64,000 nt of DNA from a virus (lineage: Duplodnaviria; Caudoviricetes), in the IMG/VR virus record IMGVR_UViG_3300025936_000002, positions 21,270 through 85,269 of that record. The stretch is one strand, 5' to 3'. Shown here one piece after another: positions 18,896 through 44,772 of this stretch; position 1 is the first letter of the stretch; every line of letters begins with the position of its first letter. Below the pieces are notes generated by a model, which saw nothing but the letters and a program-made list of their open reading frames with translations, searched no databases and was not told where the DNA came from. The position numbers were made by a program, and so were the translations under genes.

Positions 18896-19780
18896 TCAGA
18901 ATTGCGGCAGATCGAGGATAGGGCGGCCTTGGGCGCGGCGTTGGATGGCCTTCAGGACCACGAGCGCTCCGACGCCAGCAACCACCGTGAAACCGGTCCA
19001 CTGCAGCCATCCCCACGGCTTGTTTTGGCCAGGCAGCGCAAACTTGGGCTTGTCGACGATCTTGTTGCAGGTGGCAACGCACGCATCGGTTTGGCCACCT
19101 TGACCAGTGCAGGTTTTGAGGCATTCGAGACGAGCGGCGGTGTAATTGGCGAACGCGTTGGCTTGCTCCGCGACTTGCTTGGAGTTGGATTCTTGGACCG
19201 CGCTCGTCTCGAGGTAGTGCATGATTGCGACGATCGCTACGGATACAGCAATAGCGATACCGGCAATTGCGATCAGGACTATCGGCAGAACACCCAAGCC
19301 GTTCGTGGCGGTTTGGCTTCGCGCCGCTTGAACCTGCAGGAGCGTCGAAAAGCTCGGCGCCCGTTCAGGATTCAACGCAAATTGATCTTGGGTGACGATC
19401 TGGATCTCGTTGGTCGACAGCCGCTGCGCCTTCTTGGTTGGCGTCATAGCCGCCCTGAGCGCCCCCGAGAGTGAGTTTCCACCCCCCTCGCAATTCATTT
19501 GCCAGGCAGTTTCGCCGGAGACGCCCTTCCAAGCGAACAGGGTCGGCGCTGTAGGTAGCTCGGGCACACCCTGCTCGCCGTTGGCCCGCAGCGTCGCCAG
19601 CATACCCGCCTGCGTGTTGTAAGTGGCCAAGGCCCACAGGTTGTAGGCCTTTACCTCGTCGCAGGTAGCCTCGCCGACTTGGAGCAGGCCAGCGATGTTG
19701 CCTGCCGCCCTCCGCATCGCCTGGTAGAGGCGCTCGATGTTGTCGGCGATCGTCTTGAGCCTGGTGGCGTCGTCGGCCAT
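18896..19780 (-). CDS. two-TM membrane protein with a Cys cluster (putative virion membrane protein)
   Basis: TNGLG directly before TM1; CLKTC..CVATC; C-terminal TM plus RR. Confidence 0.75.
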   Translation of the reverse strand: MADDATRLKTIADNIERLYQAMRRAAGNIAGLLQVGEATCDEVKAYNLWALATYNTQAGMLATLRANGEQGVPELPTAPTLFAWKGVSGETAWQMNCEGGGNSLSGALRAAMTPTKKAQRLSTNEIQIVTQDQFALNPERAPSFSTLLQVQAARSQTATNGLGVLPIVLIAIAGIAIAVSVAIVAIMHYLETSAVQESNSKQVAEQANAFANYTAARLECLKTCTGQGGQTDACVATCNKIVDKPKFALPGQNKPWGWLQWTGFTVVAGVGALVVLKAIQRRAQGRPILDLPQF

Positions 19781-19787
19781 GCCAAGG

Positions 19788-19796
19788 AGCTTACCA
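19788..19796 (-). promoter_or_regulatory. extended -10 TGGTAAGCT
   Basis: 7 nt before ATG 19780. Confidence 0.65.
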
Positions 19797-19810
19797 CAGG
19801 TGCTAGGCGT

Positions 19811-20086
19811 CTAGTCATCCTCCAGTAAGCACAGCGCGGTTTGAAGCATCTGCCTCAGCTTGGCCTTGACGAGCGGCACGGTCGATTCATGGACGCCGAT
19901 CGAAATACGACCCCGCCAAAGATGCTCCCAATGCTCAACCTCAATATTGATTGAGCCATGGTCCTCAGAATGATCGGCTTTGAACATCATCGGTTGGAGC
20001 GGCATCGCAGACCAAGCTACAGCTTTGATCTGACAAGTGCTGCCACGCCAATCACGCCTATCCCCAAGAGGCTCCAAGTCCACCAC
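19811..20086 (-). CDS. hypothetical protein
   Basis: 91-aa ORF; true start probably later than in the track. Confidence 0.4.
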   Translation of the reverse strand: MVDLEPLGDRRDWRGSTCQIKAVAWSAMPLQPMMFKADHSEDHGSINIEVEHWEHLWRGRISIGVHESTVPLVKAKLRQMLQTALCLLEDD

Positions 20087-20325
20087 GGCCAGCCACCAAA
20101 ACCAAAACCACCTAGGCCGGATTCCACCCGTCGAAGGCGTGTATAGTAGTCGGGCACCTCGTAGAGATGATCGAGAGCGATCTCATACGCGATTTGCGGA
20201 TCGCGCGTGTGTTCCATCTCGACGCGGATTCCCTCTTGGATCTGCCATGGATCGACATCGATCGGCCCCATGCCAGAGGATTTACCTCCAGGGATGCGTT
20301 CAGGTCGCGGCGGCCAAACCAACAT
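20017..20325 (-). CDS. DUF5661-like domain with a C-terminal TM anchor
   Basis: GIRVEMEHTRDPQIAYEIALDHLYEVPDYYTRL, then SGLGGFG and a TM. Confidence 0.8.
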   Translation of the reverse strand: MLVWPPRPERIPGGKSSGMGPIDVDPWQIQEGIRVEMEHTRDPQIAYEIALDHLYEVPDYYTRLRRVESGLGGFGFGGWPWWTWSLLGIGVIGVAALVRSKL

Positions 20326-20327
20326 GT

Positions 20328-20693
20328 CTAGAGCTGGGTTGCCATCCCAACTTCGGCCGGAACGTTTTGGAAGACTTGGTAACTGATCTCGACACCTGAG
20401 CCATCGGCACCCCCAGAGGGGGTGGAGACGAAAAGGCTTTGGCCCTTGGCCAAGACGAAGACGTCGACTTGACCGGCGGGAAGCTTCCAGGTGTCGATCT
20501 GAGTCGGGAAGGTCTGCAGCGTCGAAGCGTCGAACGCGATCAAGACATATTGCCCATAGGCGTTGTTACGCACCCGGACAACGCAATCGTATCCGACGCG
20601 ATCGACGATCACCGCAGGTGTAATTGGCGTCGGCGTCGCCGGTGGGCCGGATATGATCGGAACCTTGAGCGTATTTACGCGGCTAGCAAACAT
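20328..20693 (-). CDS. beta-rich putative minor capsid protein
   Basis: 121 aa with alternating hydrophobic strands, in a structural operon. Confidence 0.6.
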   Translation of the reverse strand: MFASRVNTLKVPIISGPPATPTPITPAVIVDRVGYDCVVRVRNNAYGQYVLIAFDASTLQTFPTQIDTWKLPAGQVDVFVLAKGQSLFVSTPSGGADGSGVEISYQVFQNVPAEVGMATQL

Positions 20694-20712
20694 GACAGAT
20701 CAATTCGCTAGG

Positions 20713-21210
20713 CTAGCGGTTGTTCGTCGCAGGAGCGATGACAATCAGGAAGCCTTCGAAGGTAATGGCCACCAAGATCGATGCCATATTCGTAACAGCA
20801 GGGAACGTGTCCGCTTGGACCGTGACTTGGAACCCCGTCGAGCACTGCAGATACTCCGGATCGGCCCACTCCCAGGTCCGCTCCGACGAGCCTTTGGTGA
20901 GCGTCCCGATGCGGGTCGGGACACGCGTCATGGCCTGCTCGCGGTTGAACACCTTGATCGAGACCTTGATCAAGCCAGCAAGTAGCTCCTGGTCGGGCTG
21001 CGTGGGGAGCATCACGCCTTGAGAGTCAAGCGCGTAGAGCCGCGGGATCATTCGATGGACCTCGAACGGCTTATCCGTCTGACAACTAAAGGTCGCCTGC
21101 GGGAAATCGGTCGCAACCTGTGCTGTAATGAGCAAAAGCTCGCCGAACAGCGAGTAGGGATCCCGATCGGTGATGACGCGGTCAGCGTAGGTATTTGGCA
21201 GACGACCCAT
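20713..21210 (-). CDS. putative single-jelly-roll capsid protein (small)
   Basis: 165 aa, all-beta pattern, no TM, SD GGAG. Confidence 0.5.
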   Translation of the reverse strand: MGRLPNTYADRVITDRDPYSLFGELLLITAQVATDFPQATFSCQTDKPFEVHRMIPRLYALDSQGVMLPTQPDQELLAGLIKVSIKVFNREQAMTRVPTRIGTLTKGSSERTWEWADPEYLQCSTGFQVTVQADTFPAVTNMASILVAITFEGFLIVIAPATNNR

Positions 21211-21341
21211 GACGTTTGGACTCCTGCCGCATTGATGCTAGCGGCCTATCTAACGTCCACGAATCGTTACATAAAGTCAAAAAAGACGCAGATTTACGGC
21301 GGGGAGATCATCCAAACCAATAAGCCAATCGAGACAAGGTG

Positions 21342-21683: not shown

Positions 21684-21689
21684 AAAGCC

Positions 21690-22025: not shown

Positions 22026-22051
22026 TTCTGGTTTTTTGAAACCGAGAACTA

Positions 22052-22759
22052 CTAGGTCACGTTGCGCTTGATCAGGCCGTAGAGATAGCTCTTGATGTCG
22101 GCAAACGTCAAGTTATCGCCGCCATCCGAGGCGGGCTGGACGATGACCGGCGGCGCCTCGGGGTTGAACTCGAGCCGATACGCGATGTTCTCGCGCATCC
22201 AGATCGGCAGAACGAGCGCGTTGCGATCGCGGGGCGACGGAACGCCGTTCTGCGCGAGCTCGAAGTTGGCGTTGGTGCTGAACACGTTGAAGCCATGCCC
22301 CTGCGGGTAGTCCTGGATCACACCGGACGTGTACACCTTGTCGTTGTACTTGAACTCCAGGTAGGTCACGCGATCGACGTTGAACAGCGTCCGCAGCGTG
22401 GCCGGATCCGACAGTGCACCGTTGGTGTCCGGGAACTGCGGCTGCGTCGCGTTCTCGGCCGGGCGCTCGACGCGGACCATCTTGATCCCGATGCCGTAGA
22501 TGAACATCTCCCACGACATCGGCAGACCGGTATCACCGGCGCGAGCGAGGTTGCTATCCACGCGGGTGCTAGTACGTGTGCCGCCGTTGATCGGCTGCGC
22601 GCGACCGTTCACGAACGCCTGCAGACCGAAGGTCTGCCCGTTGGTGAACTGCACGGTGCTATACAGCTTGTCATCGATCCAGTCTTCGATCTGGATCGTC
22701 TGCCCGCTGGGCAGGGTGAACGTGGTGGTTCCTGGTGCTACTCCGACAGTGCCGGCCAT
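22052..22759 (-). CDS. putative major capsid protein (jelly-roll-like)
   Basis: 235 aa, beta-rich, no TM; strongly C/G-ending codons; SD GGAGAA; last gene of a structural operon. Confidence 0.55.
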   Translation of the reverse strand: MAGTVGVAPGTTTFTLPSGQTIQIEDWIDDKLYSTVQFTNGQTFGLQAFVNGRAQPINGGTRTSTRVDSNLARAGDTGLPMSWEMFIYGIGIKMVRVERPAENATQPQFPDTNGALSDPATLRTLFNVDRVTYLEFKYNDKVYTSGVIQDYPQGHGFNVFSTNANFELAQNGVPSPRDRNALVLPIWMRENIAYRLEFNPEAPPVIVQPASDGGDNLTFADIKSYLYGLIKRNVT

Positions 22760-22827
22760 GGTGGCTTCTCCTTGCGATGTGATGAGTCATGAACGGCGCC
22801 GAACGAGCGCCAAGGAAGACGAGGTGA

Positions 22828-23448
22828 CTAGCGACCGGCCCCGAGGAGCGTGGCGCCGTAGGCGGCGGCGAGGTTGTGCGTCGGGGGACCGCCGGCGCCG
22901 AGGAGCTGGATCGATGCTGCCGACGGAGTGCCGAGCAGCGAGATGGGCGGAGCGCCGCCGCCGGGGCCCGCGAGGTGCGAACCCGCAACGCCCGGGATTG
23001 CACCCTGAGCATGCGAGACCGGCGAGAGCTCGGGGAGCCCGAGACCGTTGAGCGCCCGCGTGGCCGGATAGCCCAGCCCGTTGAGCGCCCGCGCCTGCGG
23101 GAACCCGAGACCCTTGACCTCAGGCGGCACGACCTTGGCCGGCACCGTCGCTTCGCCCATCATCCACTTGCCGATCAGAGGCAGCCCCGCGACGAGGAGC
23201 GCCGTCACCGTGCTGGCAACGGCTGCGCCGCGGGTCGACTTCATCGAAGCCAGCACCGCAGATGTCGCGAGGCCGAGACCAAGGCCGATCGCTTCGGCAT
23301 GCTGAGAGCCGCCGATGTGGCGTGCCGCAAGCGTACCGACGCCCGCTACGCCACCACCGATCAGAGCACCATACGTCGGGTTGAGACGCCCGCCCTTGAA
23401 CATCCCGAGCCCCAGCAGATCGACGCCCGAGGAAATCAGCTTTGCCAT
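22828..23448 (-). CDS. membrane protein with repeated xxGLG motifs (putative scaffold/membrane-capsid linker)
   Basis: Three hydrophobic segments; LLGLG, VKGLG, LNGLG x2. Confidence 0.75.
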   Translation of the reverse strand: MAKLISSGVDLLGLGMFKGGRLNPTYGALIGGGVAGVGTLAARHIGGSQHAEAIGLGLGLATSAVLASMKSTRGAAVASTVTALLVAGLPLIGKWMMGEATVPAKVVPPEVKGLGFPQARALNGLGYPATRALNGLGLPELSPVSHAQGAIPGVAGSHLAGPGGGAPPISLLGTPSAASIQLLGAGGPPTHNLAAAYGATLLGAGR

Positions 23449-23485
23449 TTGAAAATTCTCCTGATCTTGATCTTGGGAAACGGGA

Positions 23486-23653
23486 TCAGCAGCCGCCCTT
23501 GACGAAGGTCCAACCGCTGCGGTGTTTCTTCGAGCGACCGACGAAGCAGAGCTTCACGCCGCGTCCACGCTTGGTGCGAACGCACTTGCACTGCTTATGC
23601 TTGGACGCGCCGAGACCCCCACCCGGGCCGTCTAGACTCATGATCTTCGCCAT
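23486..23653 (-). CDS. small basic Cys-containing protein
   Basis: MAKIMSLDGPGGGLGASKHKQCKCVRTKRG... Confidence 0.7.
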   Translation of the reverse strand: MAKIMSLDGPGGGLGASKHKQCKCVRTKRGRGVKLCFVGRSKKHRSGWTFVKGGC

Positions 23654-23669
23654 GTTGATTGACCCCTGA

Positions 23670-24173
23670 TCAGCGGTACCATTGGCGTAGAGGACGATCG
23701 ATGAGGGCTTGTGCCTGCGCGGCCGGGAATGCCACGCCGTAGCGATCCTTTTGGATCGCCATGAGTCCCGCCATCTGCGCGGCCAGCTGCGGCGCGATTT
23801 GCTGCGCCATACCCGGAGCCGGGCCGGGCATACCCAACCCATTCATGGGTTGAGGTGGCATCCGCGGCACACCACTTGCCGTAGGTGGCATCGGATGTGG
23901 AGCAGGCATCCCAGCAGACATCAGCTTCTTGGCTCGACGCTCGGCGATCCAAGCTCGGAGCCGAGCGAGGAACCGCTCCACGGGGGCCGGCATCGCGCCG
24001 AGACCCTGCAGCATCATGCCGCGCTCGGCACCCTGCGTGAACGCCATCGCCACCGCCTCGACGTCCGCCGGCGGCTGATAGCCCACCATCGGAGCCAGGA
24101 CGCTGGTGCGATACACCCGATCGGGACGCATGAAATGCATCCCGTCGCCGTGCCTGTTGGTAAAATCAGCCAT
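23670..24173 (-). CDS. Pro/Met-rich putative virion protein
   Basis: 167 aa; LQGLG and MNGLG motifs; first gene of the capsid operon. Confidence 0.75.
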   Translation of the reverse strand: MADFTNRHGDGMHFMRPDRVYRTSVLAPMVGYQPPADVEAVAMAFTQGAERGMMLQGLGAMPAPVERFLARLRAWIAERRAKKLMSAGMPAPHPMPPTASGVPRMPPQPMNGLGMPGPAPGMAQQIAPQLAAQMAGLMAIQKDRYGVAFPAAQAQALIDRPLRQWYR

Positions 24174-24208
24174 GTATGCAACATCGAACGTTGACGGATT
24201 TTTGTCAA

Positions 24209-24899: not shown

Positions 24900-24909
24900 G
24901 GTTCGACGT

Positions 24910-26772: not shown

Positions 26773-27126
26773 ATGGCCCAGCTTGCCGCCCGCAGCTACT
26801 ACGACGAGACCGGAACCTACGAGGGCGGATCTGGCCGAACGGTCGATACAAGCCCAATGCCGCCGACACCACTACCGCGGCCCGTCACGAGCCCCAACCC
26901 AGTGCCGTCAGACGGCCTACCGCCACCCATCAATCCAAGCGACGCACCGATCGTGACGCCATCTATCCCGCCTGCACCCTACCCGACGAACACAGGCATC
27001 GTCCCGCCGCATCTACAGATGACTTGGATCCAAGCCCATCCGATGGTGATCCCGGTTGGGATCGGCTTGGCTGGGCTCCTCTTGGGCCTCACCATCGGCA
27101 TCGCCGTTGGCAGCCGCAAGCGCTAG
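26773..27126 (+). CDS. Pro-rich tail-anchored membrane protein
   Basis: Pro/Thr stalk, C-terminal TM, SRKR. Confidence 0.75.
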   Translation: MAQLAARSYYDETGTYEGGSGRTVDTSPMPPTPLPRPVTSPNPVPSDGLPPPINPSDAPIVTPSIPPAPYPTNTGIVPPHLQMTWIQAHPMVIPVGIGLAGLLLGLTIGIAVGSRKR

Positions 27127-27515
27127 CGAAGTAGCGCGCCGGCGCCGCCGAGGACGGCCAATCCGAGCAGCGCGACACCACCGATGACCAGCCACTTGCG
27201 GTTGGTCCAGGCCCACGAGTCGAAGCCGAAGCCGAGCCCGTGAGGCGGATCTATCCACCGCGCCTTGGTGATGCCTAGACCAGTGAGGCTCGTGCAGGGT
27301 AGACCGGGGCAACACGGCGCTTGGCCGTTGGTGCACGCCAACGGATCACCTTGGATGCGTTGTGGAACGTAGCTGAGCGGCTGGATCGTCCGCTGCCCGT
27401 TGGTCCAGTCGCCTGGAATCTTGCAATGCGGATTGAGCTTGATGTTGATTGCAGGATCCTCAGAAAATTGCCAATCAGGGATCAACCCGAGTCCATGTGG
27501 TTGCGCAAACATCAT
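27123..27515 (-). CDS. Cys-rich tail-anchored protein with three GLG motifs
   Basis: PHGLG, LTGLG, PHGLG; CTNGQAPCCPGLPC; C-terminal TM. Confidence 0.7.
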   Translation of the reverse strand: MMFAQPHGLGLIPDWQFSEDPAINIKLNPHCKIPGDWTNGQRTIQPLSYVPQRIQGDPLACTNGQAPCCPGLPCTSLTGLGITKARWIDPPHGLGFGFDSWAWTNRKWLVIGGVALLGLAVLGGAGALLR

Positions 27516-27522
27516 AGTTGTT

Positions 27523-27834
27523 TTATCTCCTCGTTCGACGCAGCGGTCTAATCTGCCAGCCAGACAAACGACGATTAGCCGCCGCGAAGTCGGCAATGTC
27601 GGAGCGCGCAAACGAAATTGCAGCATGCGCCGCATCGCGCATAGCGCGCGGATCGTCAACAGCAAGACGACGGCCATGGACGCTACGAGATCCTGCCGCC
27701 GGCGGCTTCACCGAAACCGTTTCACAGCGTTCGCCTTTGACGGTTGGGCACATCTTGACTCGATATTGATCTGTTCGATCGTTGAAGCTAACTTCGAGCT
27801 TCAAGCTACCACTCTTGAATCGCTGCTTTGCCAT
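27523..27834 (-). CDS. basic hypothetical protein
   Basis: ATG overlaps the TAA of the upstream gene (TAATG). Confidence 0.65.
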   Translation of the reverse strand: MAKQRFKSGSLKLEVSFNDRTDQYRVKMCPTVKGERCETVSVKPPAAGSRSVHGRRLAVDDPRAMRDAAHAAISFARSDIADFAAANRRLSGWQIRPLRRTRR

Positions 27835-28253
27835 TACGCAACCCTCCGCTTGCCGAAGCCTTGGGCGACGCCGATGACCGGCGTGATCACCGGGAAGGTC
27901 AAACCCATTAAGGCCCACCAGAGGGCCCAACCGATGGACTGATTGCGCCTGTAGCCGTGGTAGGCGCTCGCCGCCATGCTCGCAGTCGACAGGATCCCCC
28001 AAACCAGCCCCCAATTCACCTTGGAGCTCGCATCGAGCCACGTGAGCGCCCCCGCGACAGCCTTGCTATCCACCCCACGAGCGATCAGCGCTCGGGCTGC
28101 ATCGGTACGGGGCCCGCCGGAGGCGTAGAGCTTTAGGAACTCAGCCACCTGCGTAGACGACGGATTCGGCGACTTGAGGAGGAATCCATCGATCTCGTTG
28201 TCGAGGCCGAGCAGCTGGATCGGCGGACCTAGCAGTTGGACGGGGGCTGGCAT
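27834..28253 (-). CDS. membrane protein (two C-terminal TM segments)
   Basis: WGLVWGILSTASMAASAYHGYRR..WALWWALMG; TGGTAGGCT at 28265..28273. Confidence 0.75.
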   Translation of the reverse strand: MPAPVQLLGPPIQLLGLDNEIDGFLLKSPNPSSTQVAEFLKLYASGGPRTDAARALIARGVDSKAVAGALTWLDASSKVNWGLVWGILSTASMAASAYHGYRRNQSIGWALWWALMGLTFPVITPVIGVAQGFGKRRVA

Positions 28254-28734: not shown

Positions 28735-29454
28735 CTACGCGTCGAAGTCGATGAACTTGGCGTAAGTCGGCTCGCGGCCGAAGTGATCGTTGCCGGGGAG
28801 AGTCGTGTCCAGGGCGACGAATTTGTCTCCGCCACCCTTCGGTAGAAGGGCCCCAGGGAAGATATGCTCCCAGTCCTCGGCGCCCTTGGTCTGGACTACA
28901 CGAAGCCGCGGTGTAATGCCGTTTTCCGCGAGCATCGTTGCCGCCAAAATGTTGTGATCGTCGCAATCGCCGCCACCGAACTCCAACGTTCGATGGGCAG
29001 CTTGGAAGAGGTCAACCCCCTCTACTTTCCCATCGTGCCAACGGATTGGTGCAATATCGCCTGTATAGCGAACGCGAGCCTTGATGAAGTCGTAGATTGC
29101 TTTGGCTTCACACATCCCGTCTCGCTCTGGGCAATGGGCGGTTGCCTGCAACGAGATCTTTCGCATCCGTCCATCTTTGATGGATTCACGGACGCGCTCT
29201 TGGATCGAAGCTACGCGGACCTCGATCGGCATGTTGTCCATCTCACGAAGTGTTGTAGTATACCCACCGGCTGTACGCTGATCGACGATCGGCGCCTCTT
29301 GAGCCTTACCTAGGAACCGCCGACCTTTTCGCCCCCATCCAAGGCCGGAGATCGGGGTTGGAGCCCCCTGACGGCTGTAGGCAATCCCCCCGAGGATGAG
29401 GAGACCCAGCCCCGTAAGACCTGAGATCCAAGCGAGCGTGGTTGGCTTCTTCAC
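28735..29454 (-). CDS. membrane-anchored transglutaminase-like cysteine enzyme (candidate maturation protease)
   Basis: N-terminal TM; GDCDD, WEHIF, ALDTT give a Cys-His-Asp triad; TGCTAGCAT 10 nt before GTG 29454. Confidence 0.85.
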   Translation of the reverse strand: MKKPTTLAWISGLTGLGLLILGGIAYSRQGAPTPISGLGWGRKGRRFLGKAQEAPIVDQRTAGGYTTTLREMDNMPIEVRVASIQERVRESIKDGRMRKISLQATAHCPERDGMCEAKAIYDFIKARVRYTGDIAPIRWHDGKVEGVDLFQAAHRTLEFGGGDCDDHNILAATMLAENGITPRLRVVQTKGAEDWEHIFPGALLPKGGGDKFVALDTTLPGNDHFGREPTYAKFIDFDA

Positions 29455-29508
29455 GGTGCCTTGGATGCTAGCACGGCTTTGGCAAACCATCGAGTTAGGC
29501 TGCTTTCA

Positions 29509-30412: not shown

Positions 30413-31909
30413 ATGCACGTGTTTCGAGCGCGAGGTCTGCACGGTCAGGGGCTATGCGGCCTCGGCGACTATCCAGCTAGCAACGGATTCTGTTGGGTCC
30501 CCGCTAGCGGGGACATCCCGGGCCACTGGGAGCGGCCATGGGCTGGTAGCAACCCAACGACGCCGTGCAAGTATCCGCCACCTGATAGCGGTGGAGCGAT
30601 CGTACGTGATCATACGAGCGGCGGGGGCGGAGGTGGCGTAACGGTGACCGAGAGCCCCAGCATCTTGGACGTCGCCAAAGGCACCATTGTCAACTTGGCG
30701 ATGGTGAACCGCCTCTTCAACGCGACGCTCAAGCAATACACAGAGCGTGAGGCGCTAGCGGTCAAGGCGCTCATGGTTACGGGGGAGGGGTTGCCCGCAT
30801 GCCCACCCGAGAGCCAACAAACCATCGACGGCAAACCAACTTGTTACGGGTTCACGCCGCGTACAGCAGCTGCAGCACTGCCTGGAGGGTTTGAAGTCCT
30901 CGGCGTCCCGTTCAACGTGTCTGAAATCGGCATTACCAAGAAGCCGCAATTCGAGCGCGTATTCACGCCAAACAATGAACAGCGGATCATGATCGAATCG
31001 ATGATCATTCGTCGATCTGATGATCTACTACTTGCTGCCCTCGGAGATGCGTTGGATCGTGCAGTCGCTGCGAGCAGTGGGGGCGTCATGACCCCCAATG
31101 ATCGAGATCGAGCGATTGCCAAGCTGTCGGCGGCGCAGGCATTCGCGTTGCTGCCCGATTGGCAAACGGTGATCCCAGGAATGGCACTGCGTTCGGATCC
31201 GCCGCGAAGCTATGAGCTAGATGTCGAAGGTGGATTCAGTAAATGGCACGATCGGGGCGGATTTCTGATCTCACGCGCTATCGCTACCGGTCAATACTTC
31301 ATCAACGTCCCTCAACCGGATCAAGCGCGCCAGGCGGGAACCATCTCGCCACGGGTGTGCACGTCAATTCTGTGCGCCTGCAGTCCAACCGGTACACCAT
31401 CGTGCATTGCCGATTGGATCCCATCATCAGATGGGGGGCGCGTTCGACTTTGGGTCCATGTTGCAATCGATCCTAACGGATCGATGAAGATGACTCTGAA
31501 GCATGATGATCCTAGTTGGCTAGAGAAGGCTGGTGGAAAAATCCATGCCTTCGTGGATGTCTTGAACAAAGCAATATGCACAGCGGCCCCAGCCATCAAA
31601 ACGCAAACAACTTCGGTCATCGCCGACAAGTACGTCGACGCCAACGGCAAGGCGTGTACTAAAGGCGCGACGGGCTGCAACCTTGTTCAGGCCTCAGCCG
31701 CGGCAACGGGGGGCGTTGGCCTCCTGAATTTTGCGGTAGGAACGTACTGCAGCGTCATTGCGAGCAACCAACAAAACCCTAAGGAGCCGGTGCCCCCAAC
31801 CCCGACTCCGGCCCCCATCACCACAACTCCACCGTGGTTGCATTATCTGCCCTGGGTGATTGGCGGCCTGGCACTCGGTGCCGGAGCGGTAGTTATCACG
31901 CGTCGCTAG
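30413..31909 (+). CDS. large Cys-rich tail-anchored protein (putative spike/envelope protein)
   Basis: 498 aa, many Cys, LCGLG near the N-terminus, Pro/Thr stalk, C-terminal TM plus RR; TGATAGGCT 8 nt upstream. Confidence 0.85.
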   Translation: MHVFRARGLHGQGLCGLGDYPASNGFCWVPASGDIPGHWERPWAGSNPTTPCKYPPPDSGGAIVRDHTSGGGGGGVTVTESPSILDVAKGTIVNLAMVNRLFNATLKQYTEREALAVKALMVTGEGLPACPPESQQTIDGKPTCYGFTPRTAAAALPGGFEVLGVPFNVSEIGITKKPQFERVFTPNNEQRIMIESMIIRRSDDLLLAALGDALDRAVAASSGGVMTPNDRDRAIAKLSAAQAFALLPDWQTVIPGMALRSDPPRSYELDVEGGFSKWHDRGGFLISRAIATGQYFINVPQPDQARQAGTISPRVCTSILCACSPTGTPSCIADWIPSSDGGRVRLWVHVAIDPNGSMKMTLKHDDPSWLEKAGGKIHAFVDVLNKAICTAAPAIKTQTTSVIADKYVDANGKACTKGATGCNLVQASAAATGGVGLLNFAVGTYCSVIASNQQNPKEPVPPTPTPAPITTTPPWLHYLPWVIGGLALGAGAVVITRR

Positions 31910-32160: not shown

Positions 32161-32622
32161 ATGATCCATCGCGGCGGAACCCTCCTAGGAACCAACGAGA
32201 TTGAGAACCTCCAGCGAGCCTTGAGCAATCTCGCCGTGGCCACACAGCGCCCGGCGATCAACGCCAAGGTTACCGGCGTCATGGATGATCAGACCATGAC
32301 GGCCTTGAGCGCTGGGCTTGGCCTGCTTACCGAGCAGTTACCGAAGTGGCTCTACCTTGGCCTGCAGGGTGTTCTGATCCTAGGTGTTACGAGCTCGCAG
32401 GCGAAAAAGTACGCCGGCGAGTACGCAGCGCAGCTCACGCTCGCGGCGAACACCGCCGCGGTCAAGTTCAAAACGACACCTCCAGTAATCGCGCCTGCAT
32501 CTCAACCTCAAATCGTCGGATTCTTTGCGCCGGGTTGGTACAAGACGCCGATCGGATTGGGCTTGATTGCTCTGGCGTTATTCGTCGGATACAAGATCTT
32601 CATCGCCCCCAAGGCAGCCTAA
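32161..32622 (+). CDS. tail-anchored protein with a peptidoglycan-binding-like motif
   Basis: LQRALSNL...AKVTGVMDDQT; C-terminal TM; resembles 13914..14417. Confidence 0.7.
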   Translation: MIHRGGTLLGTNEIENLQRALSNLAVATQRPAINAKVTGVMDDQTMTALSAGLGLLTEQLPKWLYLGLQGVLILGVTSSQAKKYAGEYAAQLTLAANTAAVKFKTTPPVIAPASQPQIVGFFAPGWYKTPIGLGLIALALFVGYKIFIAPKAA

Positions 32623-32631: not shown

Positions 32632-32925
32632 ATGAAGCGCATCACGTTGGGCGCCCTCGGCGCGTATCCTCAAACGGACGGAAAATGTTGGATGCCGCCG
32701 GGGTCAATCTCCGCACCAAGTGGCGGTTGGGTTGCAATCAATGATCCACTTACACTATGTACCTACAAGGGTCCTGCTGCAGGCGTAGTATCAACGCCGG
32801 GAGCTACGACGCCGACCCTACCGAGCGTGATGCCATCTTGGTGGGATCGCATCCCGACTTGGCTCAAGCTCGTGGGCGGCGTGGCGGTGGCCTATCTTGG
32901 CTACACGTATTTCATCAAGAAGTAG
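32632..32925 (+). CDS. small tail-anchored membrane protein
   Basis: LGAYPQTDGKCWMP...C; WWDRIPTWLK plus TM plus KK. Confidence 0.75.
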   Translation: MKRITLGALGAYPQTDGKCWMPPGSISAPSGGWVAINDPLTLCTYKGPAAGVVSTPGATTPTLPSVMPSWWDRIPTWLKLVGGVAVAYLGYTYFIKK

Positions 32926-34217: not shown

Positions 34218-34460
34218 ATGACCGTCGGTGTTGCGCCTGGAACCACGACCATCCACCTTGGCTTGGGCGAACCCAACAAGCAGTTGGTGCTGCACAACCC
34301 ATGGGTGTCTGGTGACGTCGCCTTGGGGGCGATTCAGACCAAGGCCAAGATCCGATGGGACATCATCGGGGTCATCGGCGGAGGATCCCTGATCATAGCC
34401 CTTGCAGCCGGCCTTATCGCCAGCGCATTCGAGGCGGGCTCTGACAGACGGACGACGTAA
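34218..34460 (+). CDS. small membrane protein sharing the capsid-protein N-terminal motif TVGVAPGTTT
   Basis: 10/10 aa identity to aa 4-13 of 22052..22759; one TM near the C-terminus. Confidence 0.75.
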   Translation: MTVGVAPGTTTIHLGLGEPNKQLVLHNPWVSGDVALGAIQTKAKIRWDIIGVIGGGSLIIALAAGLIASAFEAGSDRRTT

Positions 34461-36662: not shown

Positions 36663-37232
36663 TCACGTCATTCCCGCCCAACCAGCGATAACTCCAAACT
36701 TTTCTCGGGGTACAGCCTCGATCGAGGAACGGCCGTCGTTACCGCGACGCACAAGCCGAACCGACTGAGGGCTGACAGTTTGGACTCTGTCCAAGAACTT
36801 CGCCGAGTGGGTACAAACCACGACCTGCGCCCCCGGGTGATCGCCGTGCGGCTTCGACAGGTCGTGGACCGCCGCAACGAGGTTGCTGATGCTTGACGGG
36901 TGGACGCCGTTTTCGGGCTCTTCGACGCACAACAAACTGTGCGCCGTGGACCCGTAAACGAGCGACATATACGCGAGCAACAAGATCGTCCCATCGCTTT
37001 CAAGGTCTGCAGGAATAGGACTACCCGACGAGGACATAACTAGATTGATGCGCTTGCGAAGGTGCTCTCCCTCGGGACCCTCCATGCGCTCAAGCGGTAG
37101 AAGGATATCCGTCACATGCGGGCATGCAGCCCGGAAGCGATCGAGGAGGTAATCCCTGCGTCGATCGCAGGCGCTCCGACGGCGCCCTCTACTATGTAAA
37201 CAGAACGAAGAAGGCCGCAGCCATACGCGCAA
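36663..37232 (-). pseudogene. C-terminal half of an ABC/AAA_21-type ATPase, Walker A missing
   Basis: LESDGT (signature-like), LLCVEEPENGVHP (Walker B/D-loop), VVVCTHS (H-loop). Confidence 0.7.
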
Positions 37233-37602: not shown

Positions 37603-38145
37603 ATGGCGCTCGGCGTTGTTTTGACTCCCTACGGACACATCCCAGGATCGTTCCCGACAGCCGTAGACTTCGATCACAGAAGGGCCGAGACGTTCAGGTC
37701 TCCCTTCGATCCTAGGTGGTACGAGCGAGGCGAAGCCGGTATGTACTACGATACGCAGCTCGGAGCGACACCCACTGACTTCGAGCTCTCGCGGAAGATC
37801 GGCTTCATGCCGATCAAGACGGGATGGGTCGTCACGAAGCAGGGCTACCTACCCGGTCGGTGGTATCCCCCCGATGGGGGTTGGCCGGGCCAGCCGGCCC
37901 TCACTCGCTCCAAGGTGGTCCCCTTCGACCGCTACTCGCTGCGGGGGCTCGGCGAGCCCGAGCCTCAACCGATCCCACTACCGCCGCCTGCAACCGCGGA
38001 TGACGTCTTGGCCGTGATGGCAGCCCATAACGATCGCGTCTTCGCCTTGGCTTTGGTCTCCACCACAGCCGTGACCATCTCTGCCCTGATCACGCTTCTA
38101 CGGACGCTCAAGCTCCTACGAGAGGGTCGCTCACGTGGCGAATAA
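37603..38145 (+). CDS. tail-anchored protein with an LRGLG motif
   Basis: 180 aa; LRGLG, Pro linker, TM, basic tail. Confidence 0.75.
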   Translation: MALGVVLTPYGHIPGSFPTAVDFDHRRAETFRSPFDPRWYERGEAGMYYDTQLGATPTDFELSRKIGFMPIKTGWVVTKQGYLPGRWYPPDGGWPGQPALTRSKVVPFDRYSLRGLGEPEPQPIPLPPPATADDVLAVMAAHNDRVFALALVSTTAVTISALITLLRTLKLLREGRSRGE

Positions 38146-39454: not shown

Positions 39455-40016
39455 TCACAGCGCGGTTCCAACGAATGCATCTTTGACGATGCCAAACAAT
39501 TCTGCAGAGGACAACTGAAACCGATCGAAGCCATAATGAAAGTCTACTCCGCGTCGACAAACGCTGTTTGCATGAATCGCCGATTCCTGAATCTTACGTA
39601 TCACTGTGATGACTATACCGCTACAAGGTGTGTGATGATATTCGAGCGCCGGCATCGTGTACTCGTCGCCGGCTGAGTAGCGCTCCACGCCTCGCATGTA
39701 GACGTTGACGTCTGCGACCGGATAGCTCTCTCGGCCACCCTTGTCGCTGCGTGGTCCGTTGTGGCTGATCAGCACGTGGGATCCGGTGCCTGGCTTCACG
39801 ACCTCTAGATCGCATCGCTGGTTGACCTGGATGCCCTTTAGAACGCGCGAGGTGAACGAGAACCTGTGATTTGTGGATCGCCGAGTGCTCGTAGCAGTTT
39901 CGACGCGGCAAGTCAGGGTGCCACACGTGCAAGCGCTGATTGCCGTCGAGCTTGACTTGGATTAACCCAAGCCCATGGAGCGAGATCGTTTCAGCAGTAG
40001 GGGTGAAATCTTTCAT
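39455..40016 (-). pseudogene. cupin-like metalloprotein split by one extra base at 39870..39872
   Basis: Removing one A joins MKDFTP..HSAIH to NHRFSFTSRVLKG..EYHH in one frame. Confidence 0.7.
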
Positions 40017-40052
40017 TGCTGCACGATACCTCCCCTTGGTATAGCTGTGGCT

Positions 40053-40358
40053 ATGGCCACGGCTGCGCTCCCCACTTATAAAACGGCTGCCCACGTCCTC
40101 GAACGAGACAAGGGATCCGGTGTGCGGCTCCTGGGATGGACTGTGGCCCGAACGCTACTGATCGCTCCGCCGTTCATGGTCGTAGGCGTTCCTGCGAAGC
40201 AGGCCTTCATTGGGGCCGGAATCGCGAGTGGCTTGATCAGCTTGTTCACGCTGCTTCGCATCTTCGATGCGCGGCAGACTGGCTTAGCTGGACTCAGGCG
40301 ACCGCAGGCGGATCGCCACGGTCGCCGTCGTCTGCCCCCGCGTCCCGTCCGAAGGTAA
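40053..40358 (+). CDS. small membrane protein with a basic tail
   Basis: Two hydrophobic segments; LAGL then RRPQ..RRR. Confidence 0.65.
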   Translation: MATAALPTYKTAAHVLERDKGSGVRLLGWTVARTLLIAPPFMVVGVPAKQAFIGAGIASGLISLFTLLRIFDARQTGLAGLRRPQADRHGRRRLPPRPVRR

Positions 40359-40617: not shown

Positions 40618-40643
40618 GCAGCCAAAGCTAGCATCCTAGGCTG

Positions 40644-42650
40644 TCAAGCTCGCGCACGACCATTCTTGGCCGGCTTGGTTGACGGTTTGGCGCTCGGAGG
40701 TGGGGGCGTCTCCTCTTCTTCATCGCCGTTGTCATCGTCGTCATCCTCGTTCTCTTCCTGCGGCCCTCGCTTCAAGATCTCGACGACGCCATCTCGGTAC
40801 TTCTGTGGCGCATCGGGAACCAAGACGGAGACGAACTCGGCAAGGAGACCCTGACCAAGCAGCTCGATCATGGCCGGAATCGGGATCTGTCGTTGCTGCG
40901 CCATCGTCGCGGCGATGACGATTACCTCAGCTGCACGATCGGGATGGATCCCAGGGACGTCTGTCGTCTTCTCGACGATCTTGCCGCTGGAGAGCATCTC
41001 CTCGGCTGCGTGGACAAACTCGGCAACCCCCTTGCGGAGATCGAGGACATCATCCAACGCAGGCCCAAACCACTCTTCGTCAGTGCGACCCCACAGCCGC
41101 GTCGGCTTGGTCGGTGGTTGGGGTGTTGCCTTGGTTGGCTCGGTAGGCTCCATAACGGGCGGCCCCGCCAAGGCCGGCGGCTGCGGGAACGCTGCGGGGT
41201 TGGCCGCACGCGCCTGGACTTCCATCACGTGAGCCTGGGCTTGGGCGATCGTGGCCTGCGCCTGCGCTTGCGCCACGGCCTCCTTCTGCTTCGCACCCAC
41301 GAAGCGCTCGAGGAACTCCTTGACGTTGTCCATGCCCTTGGTCACGGCATCGATCACACCACCGCCTTGCGGTTGCGTGTTGAGGGCAGTCTCCAGCACG
41401 CGTTGCTGCATATCGAGGACCGTGCTCGTCATGCGCGTCGTCCGCTCGACGGCCTGCTCGACGCCTTGCTGGCTTTCGCGGGCGAGGGCAACCATCTCCC
41501 TCGGATTCATCATGAAGGCCTGGACGCGGGCCATGGCCGCGCTGTTTTCGCGAGCCATCTCCTTCAGAACCTCAGCGTGTTGCCGTTGATTCTCCGTCAT
41601 CAACGTGATGAACGGGTCGGCCTTGCTCGATGCATTTTGCATCTGCGTCATCATGTTCGTGATCATCGTCTGGAACTCACGTTGCATCGTCTCGATCTGG
41701 CGCTGAGTTGCCTCGTAGGCCCGCTTTGCCTCCTCGGCTTGGACGCGCATCTGCTCGCGGATCAAGGTCTCACGGCGTTCGGCCTCCTGCTCACGACGTT
41801 GGTTGTCTGTGTTGGTCTCGAGTCGACGATTGTGCTCCTTCAGCTCGTTGAACTGGGCTTGCATCGCGAGTAGCTCGGGCGATGGCCCCTTGGGTGTTGC
41901 AGCCTCTTTGAGGCTTGTCGCCAGGCTCGTCATCATCGCTTCAAGCCGCTGGAAACGATCGTTGTTTGCTAGCCGCTCGCGTTCGAGCTCGGCCTTGTGT
42001 CGAGTCTCCAACGTCTCTCGCTCACGTCGCTCGTTCTCGTCGCGGAGCTTCTTGAGCTCCAACTCACGTTCACGGCGATCTGCCTCAGCCTGCCAAAGCG
42101 TATATTGCTGCGATCCAACCTGTGGCGGTGGTGGCATTGGGTAGCCGCCGGGGGCAGTTGGCGCGAATGGCGGCTGCGGAAACATGGGCGGCATGCGAGA
42201 TCCCTGCGGTTGGGGGTTGGGGGCAGAAAAGATGGTTGTGGTCTCGGGATTCACCGCGTCTTGAAGCGGTGGAGGAATCGTCTCTGGATACGTGTTCGTC
42301 GGGTAGAATGGCCGCCAAGTCATCTTCTGCGGCTGCTCGGACGAATCGACGACGCTGATCTCATAAAGGCCGCCGCCTGACCACTGTGTGACGAGGTAGC
42401 CCTCCAAGCGTCGAATCTCTTCCTTCGTGAAGCCCTCACCATTCTCGTGATTCGAGTCGGAGGGCCAAACTGGAATCGGCGATCGTTGATTGTTCTTGAG
42501 CCGATCGATCCGAACAGTTAGCGGCTCGTTCATCGCCGCCAACTTCGCATCGTCGAACGTACCGTGGTTCTGCCGTGGTGCTGCAGCCATTGTTGGACGA
42601 TGGTGGTCACGCCTCCAAGACGTGTCAAATTTGACGGTTGTAATCGTCAT
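40644..42650 (-). CDS. large coiled-coil protein (putative scaffold/tape-measure-like)
   Basis: 668 aa: globular N-domain, Pro linker, long E/R/Q/M coiled coil, acidic then basic tail. Confidence 0.85.
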   Translation of the reverse strand: MTITTVKFDTSWRRDHHRPTMAAAPRQNHGTFDDAKLAAMNEPLTVRIDRLKNNQRSPIPVWPSDSNHENGEGFTKEEIRRLEGYLVTQWSGGGLYEISVVDSSEQPQKMTWRPFYPTNTYPETIPPPLQDAVNPETTTIFSAPNPQPQGSRMPPMFPQPPFAPTAPGGYPMPPPPQVGSQQYTLWQAEADRRERELELKKLRDENERRERETLETRHKAELERERLANNDRFQRLEAMMTSLATSLKEAATPKGPSPELLAMQAQFNELKEHNRRLETNTDNQRREQEAERRETLIREQMRVQAEEAKRAYEATQRQIETMQREFQTMITNMMTQMQNASSKADPFITLMTENQRQHAEVLKEMARENSAAMARVQAFMMNPREMVALARESQQGVEQAVERTTRMTSTVLDMQQRVLETALNTQPQGGGVIDAVTKGMDNVKEFLERFVGAKQKEAVAQAQAQATIAQAQAHVMEVQARAANPAAFPQPPALAGPPVMEPTEPTKATPQPPTKPTRLWGRTDEEWFGPALDDVLDLRKGVAEFVHAAEEMLSSGKIVEKTTDVPGIHPDRAAEVIVIAATMAQQRQIPIPAMIELLGQGLLAEFVSVLVPDAPQKYRDGVVEILKRGPQEENEDDDDDNGDEEEETPPPPSAKPSTKPAKNGRARA
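42624..42635. promoter_or_regulatory. 12-bp palindrome GTCAAATTTGAC
   Basis: Perfect palindrome near the divergence of 40644..42650 and 42672..43169. Confidence 0.35.
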
Positions 42651-42671
42651 GGGCTACTAAACAATGCTAGG

Positions 42672-43169
42672 ATGCCTCTACCAAGAGTTAAAAGCAGTCT
42701 TTTTGAGTCGTTACACGGCGTTCAGCAATCACGATTGCCTGATCGAACATTCGAGCGTGGCACCGGATGCTGGAATTGCATCCATGCCCAGAGCGCCGCG
42801 GACTTCTGGAACCAGCGACGGCAAGCCGTCTTGACCAAGGCAATGCAGATCTCGATCGAGTCGCCGAAGGGGGGTAACGATCCCGCCGCCAAACAACTGT
42901 GCTCGCGGGTCGATCAAATCGATCAAGCGGTTCAGCAACGAAAGCTGATTCGTTGTACGAAAGGCATCGTTGCGAACGGCAATCCAGTTGGCGACTTGGT
43001 TGCCGATGCCTTCATGTGCGAGCGCTGGACTGGGCGGGATGGCTCATCGCTAGCCAAGATCGAAGGCAAGGTAGATCTTCTGCCCGATGAGCTCCGTGAG
43101 CGGATCGACGGCCCAGACCCGATCGATCCAAACAAGATCAAGATCATCAAGTCGGAGGATCTATCATGA
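42672..43169 (+). CDS. hypothetical Cys-containing protein
   Basis: CWNCIH ... C ... MCERW. Confidence 0.7.
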   Translation: MPLPRVKSSLFESLHGVQQSRLPDRTFERGTGCWNCIHAQSAADFWNQRRQAVLTKAMQISIESPKGGNDPAAKQLCSRVDQIDQAVQQRKLIRCTKGIVANGNPVGDLVADAFMCERWTGRDGSSLAKIEGKVDLLPDELRERIDGPDPIDPNKIKIIKSEDLS

Positions 43170-43501
43170 TGGGGTTGATCGTCTATGGTTTGCTTTCGGC
43201 CGCAATGTTCTACCTGGGATCACGGGCTCTTGTTACTCAGAGCCTCTGGATCAAGTATCCGCCTTGGCTGGCGAAGTTCATGGACTGCTCTGCATGCACC
43301 GGCTTTTGGTGGGGCCTTGTTTGGGCTCTGACTGCCGGTCGATTGTTCATGATCGACGTTGGCCCCTTCGGGTTCGATCATCCAGCAACGCCCATCTTGG
43401 TTGGACTCTGCATGCTCGTCTTGACCCCGATGATCGCAGGCTTGATGCAGGCTGGGCTTGATCGCTTAGGCTCCGCCGTCGCTGTCCAAGATGATTTGTG
43501 A
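43166..43501 (+). CDS. membrane protein with a CxxC motif (DUF1360-like)
   Basis: Three TMs; MDCSACTGFW. Confidence 0.7.
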   Translation: MMGLIVYGLLSAAMFYLGSRALVTQSLWIKYPPWLAKFMDCSACTGFWWGLVWALTAGRLFMIDVGPFGFDHPATPILVGLCMLVLTPMIAGLMQAGLDRLGSAVAVQDDL

Positions 43502-43511
43502 CAGCGCGACT

Positions 43512-43520
43512 TGATAGGCT
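43512..43520 (+). promoter_or_regulatory. extended -10 TGATAGGCT
   Basis: 6 nt before GTG 43527. Confidence 0.65.
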
Positions 43521-43526
43521 GAATTC

Positions 43527-43967
43527 GTGCCACGAACCAAGCCAATAAAGAAGCAGACGACCAAGCAAGCCACTCCTCCAGCAACACTGGGAACATCGAT
43601 CGGCGATGCGCCGATGACGATCACCTTTGCCCAGATGCAAGAGATGCAGGCGGCGATCAAGGCGGCTAACGCCCACGCAGCTCAGCTGGAGGCTGAGCTT
43701 CACGTTGCGAGGGGTGCCGATCCGTCTGGTCGAGTCGAAAGCTTGAGGCGTTTGATCCGGGACGGCCTCATGCCGATCATGCGCTTTGCTATCGCGAATC
43801 TCCCTCCGGACGTCGTACGAAATTGGCCGCATTCCGCGTTGGAGGCCACAATAACTTTGATGTCAAATCTTCCGGACTTCTCAGAGGACGATCGCGTGTT
43901 GATCTGCGAATTAAGGGCCTTTATGGAGGAAGTCGCGGACGCCGATAGATACCGTCGTGGCCTCTAG
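43527..43967 (+). CDS. hypothetical coiled-coil protein
   Basis: 146-aa ORF. Confidence 0.65.
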   Translation: MPRTKPIKKQTTKQATPPATLGTSIGDAPMTITFAQMQEMQAAIKAANAHAAQLEAELHVARGADPSGRVESLRRLIRDGLMPIMRFAIANLPPDVVRNWPHSALEATITLMSNLPDFSEDDRVLICELRAFMEEVADADRYRRGL

Positions 43968-44206
43968 CGATTTGCAGTGTTCAGCGGTCTATAGTATCTA
44001 GATGACCAAGGGTCGAGTACGCTTAACCCTTCGGCGCCCCAGCGATGCCCCCGTCGTTGGGGCGCCCCACCGCTTGTCGTTGGGATCTGCCTACCGCCAT
44101 GGTGCGGCGCGAGATGCGCCGACGGGCTCGAGGGCCCCATGAAACAGCGGCAGGCAGGTCTCCTTTAATAGTCGATCTGTCATGGCGGCTTGATAGAGTT
44201 GCCCGG

Positions 44207-44482
44207 ATGAAGACATACAAGCTGACAAAGCACATTCAAGCTGTTCATTGGGATGGTCAGACCTTGGATACTATCTTGCCGCTGTTTCAAGGCCGCGAGC
44301 TCGTAGTCCATTGGACTCGAGCCGTTGAGGATCGGACAGTTACATTCCTTGTTGATGGCTACCACAAGCATTTGACGGCTGGAGATTGGCTCATCATGGG
44401 TGACAAGCTAGATGTAGCGAAGCATGTCGTTGACGAAGGTTGCGCCACAGCTACGTCCCTTGGTACATTAGTCGAATTGTGA
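44207..44482 (+). CDS. hypothetical protein
   Basis: AVHWDG...LTAGDWLI; TGATAGAGT 7 nt upstream. Confidence 0.6.
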   Translation: MKTYKLTKHIQAVHWDGQTLDTILPLFQGRELVVHWTRAVEDRTVTFLVDGYHKHLTAGDWLIMGDKLDVAKHVVDEGCATATSLGTLVEL

Positions 44483-44772
44483 GCGACGTAAACGATCTCC
44501 GCGCGGCTCTAGGTTTCCCTCCAGTCGCGCTTCCTGGCGTTCGCGCTCAGCCGCCGAACACGCCAGCCGGAACCCCAGGCAACGCCCCAATGTTGCCGAT
44601 ATCGACGCAGGCGCAACGAGCGCTCGGCTGCGTTGGTTGTAGCGGAGCCGTCGGGCTCGGCGTGGGCGATCTGACCTCGTGGTACGGCCGGATCCCGATG
44701 TGGCTCAAGATCAGCGTCGGGGTGCTGGGTTTGGTCGGGATCGGTTACGGCGTCTATCGCTTCGTTCGTTGA
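44479..44772 (+). CDS. small tail-anchored membrane protein
   Basis: CVGC, AVGLG, WYGRIPMWLK plus TM. Confidence 0.7.
   Translation: MSDVNDLRAALGFPPVALPGVRAQPPNTPAGTPGNAPMLPISTQAQRALGCVGCSGAVGLGVGDLTSWYGRIPMWLKISVGVLGLVGIGYGVYRFVR

Follow-up and report, generated by a model that had tools for sequence, protein, structure and literature searches.

We analysed a 64,000-nucleotide stretch of viral DNA (positions 21,270 to 85,269 of IMG/VR record IMGVR_UViG_3300025936_000002; hereafter the window) and found a short linear motif, or tag, that recurs in its late membrane proteins. The core of the tag is Gly-(Leu, less often Phe or Met)-Gly, often with a hydrophobic residue two positions upstream and then a small or acidic residue. 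We tentatively read it as a processing code, putatively cut by a membrane-anchored, transglutaminase-fold enzyme that the virus itself encodes (28735-29490, minus strand). The window is the last 64 kb of a circular 85,269-bp genome with a terminal overlap; its IMG/VR record carries direct terminal repeats and is rated complete. The element is an uncultured virus of bacteria, in line with the prokaryotic virus assumed in the initial annotation, and it is probably tailless and membrane-containing.

Gene models were obtained with our own codon-bias gene caller, which gave 148 genes genome-wide, and expected motif counts were taken from within-protein shuffles. Among the 61 products encoded at window positions 13.9-45 kb, Gly-Leu-Gly (GLG) was seen 23 times against 6.7 expected (z 6.3), and the five-residue form (Leu/Met/Ile)-x-Gly-Leu-Gly 11 times against 1.2 (z 9.5). 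The other 87 products of the genome contained 12 GLG for 10.1 expected and 3 five-residue forms for 1.6. The GLG excess at 13.9-45 kb survived shuffling in blocks of 10 or 20 residues (23 vs 7.8-9.3), and GLG ranked first of all tripeptides there in an unbiased ranking of over-representation. The internal controls GAG, GVG and GIG stood at expectation in the same proteins and, therefore, the GLG excess is no by-product of glycine richness. The over-representation is confined to the late, membrane-protein module. Both this confinement and the enrichment beyond Gly-rich controls had been predicted by the initial annotation and were borne out.

The instances which that annotation had named were all found in the sequence at the genes given, and three need correction. 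The one in the gene starting at 32632 reads Leu-Gly-Ala-Leu-Gly and hence is not a Gly-Leu-Gly. In the genes at 23486 and 27123 the tag stands and the gene start probably does not: the most likely starts are, respectively, an internal Met (55 amino acids, tag at residue 13) and Met55 of the long open reading frame (130 amino acids, first tag at residue 8). A Leu-His-Gly-Leu-Gly (39966-39980) had also been noted in a 'cupin' open reading frame (39621-40094, minus strand); the gene caller did not pick this frame and chose an overlapping one, 39455-39799.

Related loci were fetched by exact-protein look-up (6 loci), from genome bins (3) and from metagenomes (79) and were reduced to 45 non-redundant loci, covering 8-21 kb around the gene of a capsid-protein candidate that is described below; their proteins were clustered into families. 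In 44 related loci, GLG was seen 400 times against 163 expected and the five-residue form 158 times against 32-38. Because orthologues are not independent, we also used a family-level null, in which a single chance occurrence is fully inherited, and counted the families with the motif in at least half of their members. GLG passed this count in 15 of 45 families for 6.2 expected (p 0.0018), an excess of about 2.4-fold, and the five-residue form in 7 families for 3.0 expected (p 0.035). At about two thirds of the sites, GLG is kept by the orthologues. It occurs in 92% of the members of the family of the 18896 protein, in 80% for 22828, 78% each for 30413 and 37603, 72% for the enzyme, 57% for 27123/27834 and 50% for 23670 (proteins are designated here by the first position of their gene). 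The families of the capsid candidate, of a 165-residue and a 121-residue protein, of the helix-turn-helix (HTH) proteins and of the thioredoxin-like protein are essentially devoid of it.

The tag is not evenly placed along the proteins. Across the 45 loci, it exceeded the expectation from local composition 4.7 times in the first 25 residues, 4.8 times in the 40 residues before a membrane helix and 9 times in the 30 residues after one, against 2.2 times inside membrane helices and about 1.9 times elsewhere. The placement described initially, at N-termini or between a soluble domain and its anchor, was thus recovered as the prevailing one, and several instances lie inside membrane helices rather than in tails or linkers. 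N-terminal leaders that end in the tag were found in 14 unrelated families. Their length varies between 3 and about 25 residues, some show the tag twice in tandem, and a Cys-rich domain comes after many of them. In the leader families, positions 2 and 3 were more often hydrophobic (10/47 vs 43/650, p 0.0016).

Residue usage was determined with family weighting, over 129 families with at least one site outside membrane helices. The middle residue of the core is Leu in 67%, Phe in 26% and Met in 7%, and Asp directly after the tag is enriched 2.2-fold. The middle residue differs between two groups of relatives, compared with the 22828 family left out: in clade A, the 30 loci closest to the window, GLG is enriched 2.4-fold and GFG 1.5-fold, with the tag in 81 distinct families, whereas in clade B, 12 more distant loci, the enrichments are 2.8-fold and 3.2-fold over 23 families. 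The shift from Leu to Phe has an odds ratio of 1.9 (p 0.008, by a statistic that ignores phylogeny). Since the shift runs clade-wide through unrelated proteins, a single shared reader would be expected to lie behind it rather than local structure.

The candidate for this reader is the 251-residue product of the 28735-29490 gene. It consists of an N-terminal membrane helix (residues 18-41), a disordered linker that bears a tag (43-51) and a transglutaminase-fold domain. The protein matches the Pfam family PF01841 (Transglut_core) with E 4e-5 and 24.2 bits, for a cut-off of 23, and the putative catalytic residues Cys176, His209 and Asp228 are invariant in 29 orthologues. The AlphaFold2 model has a predicted local distance difference test score (pLDDT) of 84.8, falling below 50 in the tag-bearing linker. 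Foldseek gave a probability of 1.0 to 3kd4, 3isr, LapG, TglA and CPR-C4; the fold neighbours comprise two 'putative proteases', LapG (4u65_E, 4fgo), TglA, a transglutaminase and the CPR-C4 protease and, further, PNGase and the pseudomurein endoisopeptidases PeiP and PeiW. The template modelling (TM) scores to the LapG structures are modest, 0.31-0.48. The initial annotation had proposed a Cys protease here, and a conserved Cys-His-Asp protein whose fold includes site-specific proteases was indeed found. From the profile match and the model we place it in the transglutaminase-like cysteine protease superfamily, peptide-bond hydrolysis being putative.

The enzyme carries the tag itself. An Ile-Ser-Gly-Leu-Gly (29338-29352, minus strand) stands in its linker, after the membrane helix. 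In 88 homologues that have both the helix and the domain, the linker contains GLG in 59 cases against 4.4 expected and Leu-Gly in 81 against 30 expected, while its length and sequence vary. A second Gly-Leu-Gly lies within the membrane helix (29404-29418, minus strand), with glycines conserved at 97% and 86%; it is probably a helix-packing glycine pattern and no tag. With at least 446 clusters, the enzyme family is similar in size to that of the capsid candidate (429). Pfam scans of the 148 gene products revealed no protease family besides PF01841. In particular, an adenain/Ulp1-type protease is not encoded, as neither PF00770 (adenain) nor PF02902 (Ulp1) had a match in the whole 85-kb genome at E <= 10; the adenovirus likeness first put forward does not extend to the protease fold.

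The processing code is favoured because of the flexible-end and juxtamembrane placement of the tag, the leader-like N-termini and the enzyme's own tag. That the tag is accessible where it stands would fit its 4.7- to 9-fold excess in N-terminal tails and linkers and the low pLDDT of the enzyme's own site. The virus family places the tag in flexible N-terminal leaders and in membrane-proximal linkers of late, mostly tail-anchored proteins. In the mechanism that we propose, during particle assembly the membrane-anchored cysteine enzyme would recognise the tag and cut there, which would trim short leaders and free domains from their membrane anchors, and a cut at its own tag would likewise release the catalytic domain of the enzyme. 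The motif with its placement and conservation, and the enzyme's fold, invariant triad and joint occurrence with the motif, are observations; that the carriers belong to the virion, that cutting takes place and at which bond, and that the 28735-29490 product is the cutter, we infer. The positive-inside rule, applied to the charge distribution, would put the enzyme domain and the N-terminal domains of the tail-anchored proteins on the same, cytoplasmic and capsid-facing, side of the membrane.

Among the tagged proteins, the richest is a 206-residue, Gly-rich membrane protein (22828-23448, minus strand) encoded next to the capsid candidate, with a family that is present in 45/45 loci. Of its six Gly-Leu-Gly, one is N-terminal, a helix contains two, and a tandem repeat of 11 residues has the other three. 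The N-terminal tag (residues 11-15; 23404-23418, minus strand) has Gly conserved at 96% and Leu at 93%. The three tandem tags (residues 111-137; 23038-23118, minus strand) form a conserved repeat, whose Gly-(Leu/Phe/Met)-Gly core is kept at 78-96%. The repeat (Leu-Asn-Gly-Leu-Gly-hydrophobic-Pro...) occurs in 2 to 4 copies among relatives, and the divergent clade has a Phe version of it. The next tagged gene (23486-23653, minus strand), between the neighbour of the capsid candidate and the gene of a 167-residue protein, encodes the very basic, Cys-rich protein of 55 residues with the tag at residue 13; its 36 orthologues share a conserved N-terminal leader and, after it, a conserved Leu-Gly-Ala (78/86/47%). 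This protein could condense DNA as a core protein that arises from a short precursor. The soluble 167-residue protein (23670-24173, minus strand) has tags at residues 57 and 112. The first is conserved (Leu 69%, Gly 92%, Leu/Phe 88%, Gly 46%) and the second, a Met-Asn-Gly-Leu-Gly, falls in a gap in 25 of 26 orthologues.

The tail-anchored 130-residue protein (27123-27515, minus strand) carries tags at residues 8, 79 and 93. Its N-terminal site is kept (Gly 66%, Leu 55%, Gly 57%) and the third, which is the second of its two Pro-His-Gly-Leu-Gly, is unconserved. The conservation in homologues anticipated by the first annotation thus held for about two thirds of the sites and failed for two that it had named, this one and residue 112 of the 167-residue protein. 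Additionally, a 139-residue tail-anchored protein (27834-28253, minus strand) has an N-terminal variant tag, Leu-Leu-Gly-Leu-Asp, which reads Leu-Leu-Gly-Leu-Gly in orthologues. A 498-residue Cys-rich tail-anchored protein (30413-31909, plus strand) bears the tag near its N-terminus, at residue 16. In 9 orthologues this site has Gly 56%, Leu 67% and Gly 67%, and the leader of several orthologues holds two tags in tandem. In an 80-residue tail-anchored protein (34218-34460, plus strand), with only 5 orthologues, the tag is at residue 15.

Other tags lie close to helices. A 294-residue membrane protein with two helices (18896-19780, minus strand) carries its tag where helix 1 starts, at residue 161, with Gly 100%, Leu 100% and Gly 85% in 13 orthologues. 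In a 180-residue tail-anchored protein (37603-38145, plus strand) the tag at residue 115 stands between domain and anchor and is kept in 9 orthologues as Gly (89%), a hydrophobic residue and Gly (56%), some of them with an extra tag elsewhere. A 153-residue tail-anchored protein (32161-32622, plus strand) has two Gly-Leu-Gly, one at the start of the anchor helix, which are poorly conserved (GLG in 10% of 10 orthologues). The tag precedes a Trp-rich anchor in an 84-residue DUF5661 protein (20017-20271, minus strand), where the anchor is C-terminal, and, at residue 59, in a 97-residue tail-anchored protein (44479-44772, plus strand); the orthologue of the former in relative L004 has the module of tag plus Arg-Ala-Arg-Trp twice. 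The tag is kept above varying flanks in the 23670 (residue 57), 18896 and 37603 families, in the 22828 repeats and in the enzyme linker. Conservation also exceeds that of the flanks at the N-terminal site of the 27123 family and for Leu-Gly-Ala in the 55-residue protein.

Some anchors are common to otherwise unrelated proteins. The products of 32632-32925 and 44479-44772 (both plus strand) have a near-identical anchor, Trp..Arg-Ile-Pro.Trp-Leu-Lys, on unrelated N-terminal domains, and those of 20017-20271 and 27123-27515 share an anchor made of the tag and then Phe-Asp-Ser-Trp.Trp, again behind unrelated domains. This suggests that Trp-rich juxtamembrane anchor cassettes are shuffled between genes.

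Several findings weigh against a code that is read and cut. About 40% of all GLG occurrences are what chance predicts. Leu two positions upstream of the core reaches 14% in the family-weighted usage, 1.7 times background; a strong preference for it in six close loci (31/63) was lost under this weighting. The three-residue core is hence the stronger signal, ahead of the five-residue 'code', and, of the adenovirus-like pattern first described, the Gly-(Leu/Phe/Met)-Gly core is robust and the (Leu/Met/Ile)-x prefix a weak tendency. The final Gly, before which cutting had been proposed, is replaced at the N-terminal site of the 22828 family by Asn or Asp in 35 of 45 orthologues, which would suit a turn equally, and the tandem tags of this family are part of a longer conserved 11-residue repeat, possibly a unit for binding or structure. 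Leaders can be as short as 3-6 residues, a length at which removal serves no obvious purpose. As for the enzyme, its fold neighbours include cross-linkers, cell-wall isopeptidases and glycanases and, because the transglutaminase fold also spans these activities, it could serve entry or lysis and have nothing to do with the tag.

Part of the evidence would be accounted for equally by a tag that is not cleaved and serves sorting or assembly, being read by a capsid, scaffold or membrane-insertion component so as to recruit or dock the tail-anchored proteins; we consider this somewhat unlikely, yet a serious rival. The restriction to one module, the placement at ends and in linkers and the clade-wide Leu/Phe shift point to a shared reader in either case, the tandem 11-residue repeats beside the capsid gene resemble repeated docking units, and with very short leaders removal looks pointless. 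However, one would not expect a tag for docking to stand at extreme N-termini as well as before and after membrane helices, nor in the linker of the enzyme, and its constant pairing with a protease-fold enzyme would then be a coincidence. No candidate reader of this kind was identified.

The tag might also be a structural habit that needs no shared reader, such as a hinge, a turn or a helix start by membrane helices, spread by paralogous anchor modules and kept by descent. The alternation of Gly, Asn and Asp at the last position, the instances in or at the start of membrane helices, the anchor modules common to 20017 and 27123 and to 32632 and 44479, and a family-level excess of no more than about 2.4-fold all agree with it. 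On the other hand, GAG, GVG and GIG are unenriched in the same proteins, the tag is found in 81 distinct families of clade A and is enriched 4.7-fold in N-terminal tails far from any helix, and local structure hardly explains a clade-wide shift to Phe, so that we judge this explanation unlikely. It is very unlikely that the tag is cut or modified by another route, that is, by a host or unrecognised viral protease or by the enzyme acting as a transpeptidase that cross-links tagged proteins: many genes have no recognisable family and true cross-linkers do occur among transglutaminase-fold enzymes, but no second protease family was found in the 148 gene products, and the enzyme is itself tagged and co-occurs with the capsid gene family.

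Four known signal types were rejected as identities of the tag. A prepilin-type signal would require a hydrophobic stretch, which does not follow the N-terminal tags; for a double-glycine bacteriocin leader there is neither a matching leader pattern nor a C39 peptidase; a lipobox would have a Cys, which is missing after the tag; and a sortase-type C-terminal signal does not agree with tags that are N-terminal or separated from the following helix by 10-40 residues.

The capsid-protein candidate around which the relatives were collected is a 235-residue protein (22052-22759, minus strand) that bears no tag; of 43 orthologues, 2% have GLG. Its AlphaFold model is all-beta and of low confidence (pLDDT 59.7), and matches almost only single-jelly-roll capsid proteins, these matches being weak (Foldseek E 4e-3, VIA Z 6.6). 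A comparison of its profile with the sequences of solved structures gave nothing useful, and P3 and P2 of PRD1, obtained as leads from a protein-atlas search, were discarded as unreliable, with scores of only 0.76-0.77. The protein is unusually conserved, with 429 metagenomic homologues at 68-86% identity, many of them on contigs of 80-180 kb, the sources being soil, freshwater, sediment and bioreactors; a search against IMG/VR found no close relatives. A neighbouring gene (20713-21210, minus strand), present in 37 of the 45 loci, encodes the 165-residue protein, and the two proteins may together form a two-protein jelly-roll capsid. Such a capsid would sit in a genome far larger than those of the known sphaerolipoviruses or of the Salisaeta phage SSIP-1.

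One relative, L011 (CP070815.1, 3,705,225-3,725,920), lies in the chromosome of a Gemmatimonadota metagenome-assembled genome (MAG) and has a capsid candidate 64% identical to that of the window. It directly adjoins ordinary metabolic genes, for an enolase-superfamily protein, an amidohydrolase and an M19 dipeptidase; this adjacency suggests that L011 is an integrated provirus and Gemmatimonadota a host phylum. Other relatives were binned with MAGs of Actinomycetes and Polyangiales.

Among the gene products of the genome, phage-typical functions were recognised, namely a family A DNA polymerase fused to a uracil-DNA-glycosylase-like domain, a primase-like protein and an integrase, together with two superfamily 2 (SF2) helicases, a D12 methylase, HTH regulators, glycosyltransferases and a thioredoxin-like protein. 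Terminase, portal and tail families were not detected among them, and many products have no recognisable family. About 30 small proteins with a single membrane helix are encoded, the helix being C-terminal in most. In PHROGs, no structural family matched the ten proteins that were scanned, eight of which come from the unassigned or candidate structural genes of the window. The gene of the replicative polymerase lies outside the window (genome 4416-7526, plus strand; L001) and has the uracil-DNA-glycosylase-like domain at its N-terminal end; its best match in the Gemmatimonadota MAG is a 1503-residue open frame with 40% identity over residues 268-734. The thioredoxin-like gene (17758-18108, minus strand) is conserved in 22 of 45 loci, in the same module as many Cys-rich tail-anchored proteins, which hints at virus-directed disulfide formation. 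A 150-residue product (36663-37115, minus strand) matches only the C-terminal end of the AAA_21/AAA_15 ATPase models; the gene may be truncated or split, or may have been called too short.

Tailed phages, adenoviruses, poxviruses and virophages are known to mature by means of a dedicated protease that reads a short code. To our knowledge this has not been known for membrane-containing tailless viruses of bacteria, and a literature search gave no description of such a tag, or of a protease for maturation, in bacterial viruses that contain a membrane. Should the tag prove to be cut, a new viral protease family would be defined, a sequence rule would predict the mature virion proteins in hundreds of uncultured viruses, and the remodelling of tail-anchored proteins inside the particle would be explained, with a case of convergence with adenovirus. 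If it is uncut, it would still be a family-wide sorting or assembly signal worth defining.

Compared with known systems, the tag resembles the LPXTG/sortase, PEP-CTERM/exosortase and GlyGly-CTERM/rhombosortase signals in that a short motif, a membrane helix and a C-terminal basic tail are found on many unrelated proteins. It differs from these C-terminal sorting signals in its distance of 10-40 residues to the helix and in being N-terminal just as often, and Pfam scans of the gene products revealed no sortase-type family. In phage T4, a capsid-targeting sequence is removed by the prohead protease gp21. The likeness to it is a short N-terminal leader common to unrelated proteins, which would serve both loading and trimming; the motif and the protease family are others, and T4 lacks a membrane as well as juxtamembrane sites.

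LapG, a protease that cuts at a specific site, detaches a protein from its anchoring module. It shares with our candidate the transglutaminase-like fold and the Cys-His-Asp triad, and its structures are among the best fold matches. LapG, however, is a periplasmic, calcium-dependent cellular enzyme that cuts a di-alanine site, whereas the recurrent motif here is Gly-Leu-Gly. In a Pfam scan at E <= 0.01, the enzyme gave only PF01841 and not the LapG/BTLCP family model. The enzyme is not a member of the LapG subfamily, by family model or by target motif.

SSIP-1, a tailless, membrane-containing phage, is a cultured relative. A tblastn search of the enzyme against 50,697 phage records gave no match, and the link required a profile: the enzyme family profile matched SSIP-1 gp34 with a hidden Markov model (HMM) E of 1.2e-18 and 98.4% in hhalign, with the triad aligned. 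By these profiles, the enzyme is a clear homologue of gp34, which is annotated in GenBank as a structural protein. Profile comparison gave two further, weak links to SSIP-1 genes. The late genes of SSIP-1 show a modest Gly-(Leu/Phe/Met)-Gly excess (13 vs 6.3, p 0.004) and the early genes none. Its genome, of 43.8 kb, is half the size, its capsid proteins have no detectable sequence similarity to the candidates of this virus, and in the accessible part of the literature we found no report of processing of its virion proteins. As a cultured relative, SSIP-1 makes the proposed processing directly testable.

The adenovirus protease, adenain, cuts at (Met/Ile/Leu)-x-Gly-x|Gly and (Met/Ile/Leu)-x-Gly-Gly|x. 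Like adenovirus, the virus studied here, putatively also of the jelly-roll type, repeats a single short Gly-based motif across many of its late proteins. Adenovirus also shows tandem sites and end trimming, and the site cut in its pVI, Ile-Val-Gly-Leu|Gly, has the same five-residue pattern as the tag and is a close precedent for the proposed cutting (PMC4246237). The virus studied here differs in that it has no adenain/Ulp1 fold, its candidate enzyme being of another fold and membrane-anchored, in a middle residue limited to Leu, Phe or Met, in a weak upstream hydrophobic residue, in its bacterial host and in that the cutting is inferred. It is not a member of the adenain-type maturation systems, because the defining protease fold is absent. 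More doubtful than the processing code in this one virus is its extension to a broad uncultured family of tailless, membrane-containing viruses of about 85-180 kb with a distant link to SSIP-1, which might mature their particles by a transglutaminase-fold protease and a Gly-(Leu/Phe)-Gly code, the enzyme cutting dozens of membrane proteins and itself. By analogy, and with the same doubt, such a system would be a convergent counterpart of adenovirus maturation, run by an unrelated enzyme in the prokaryotic virosphere.

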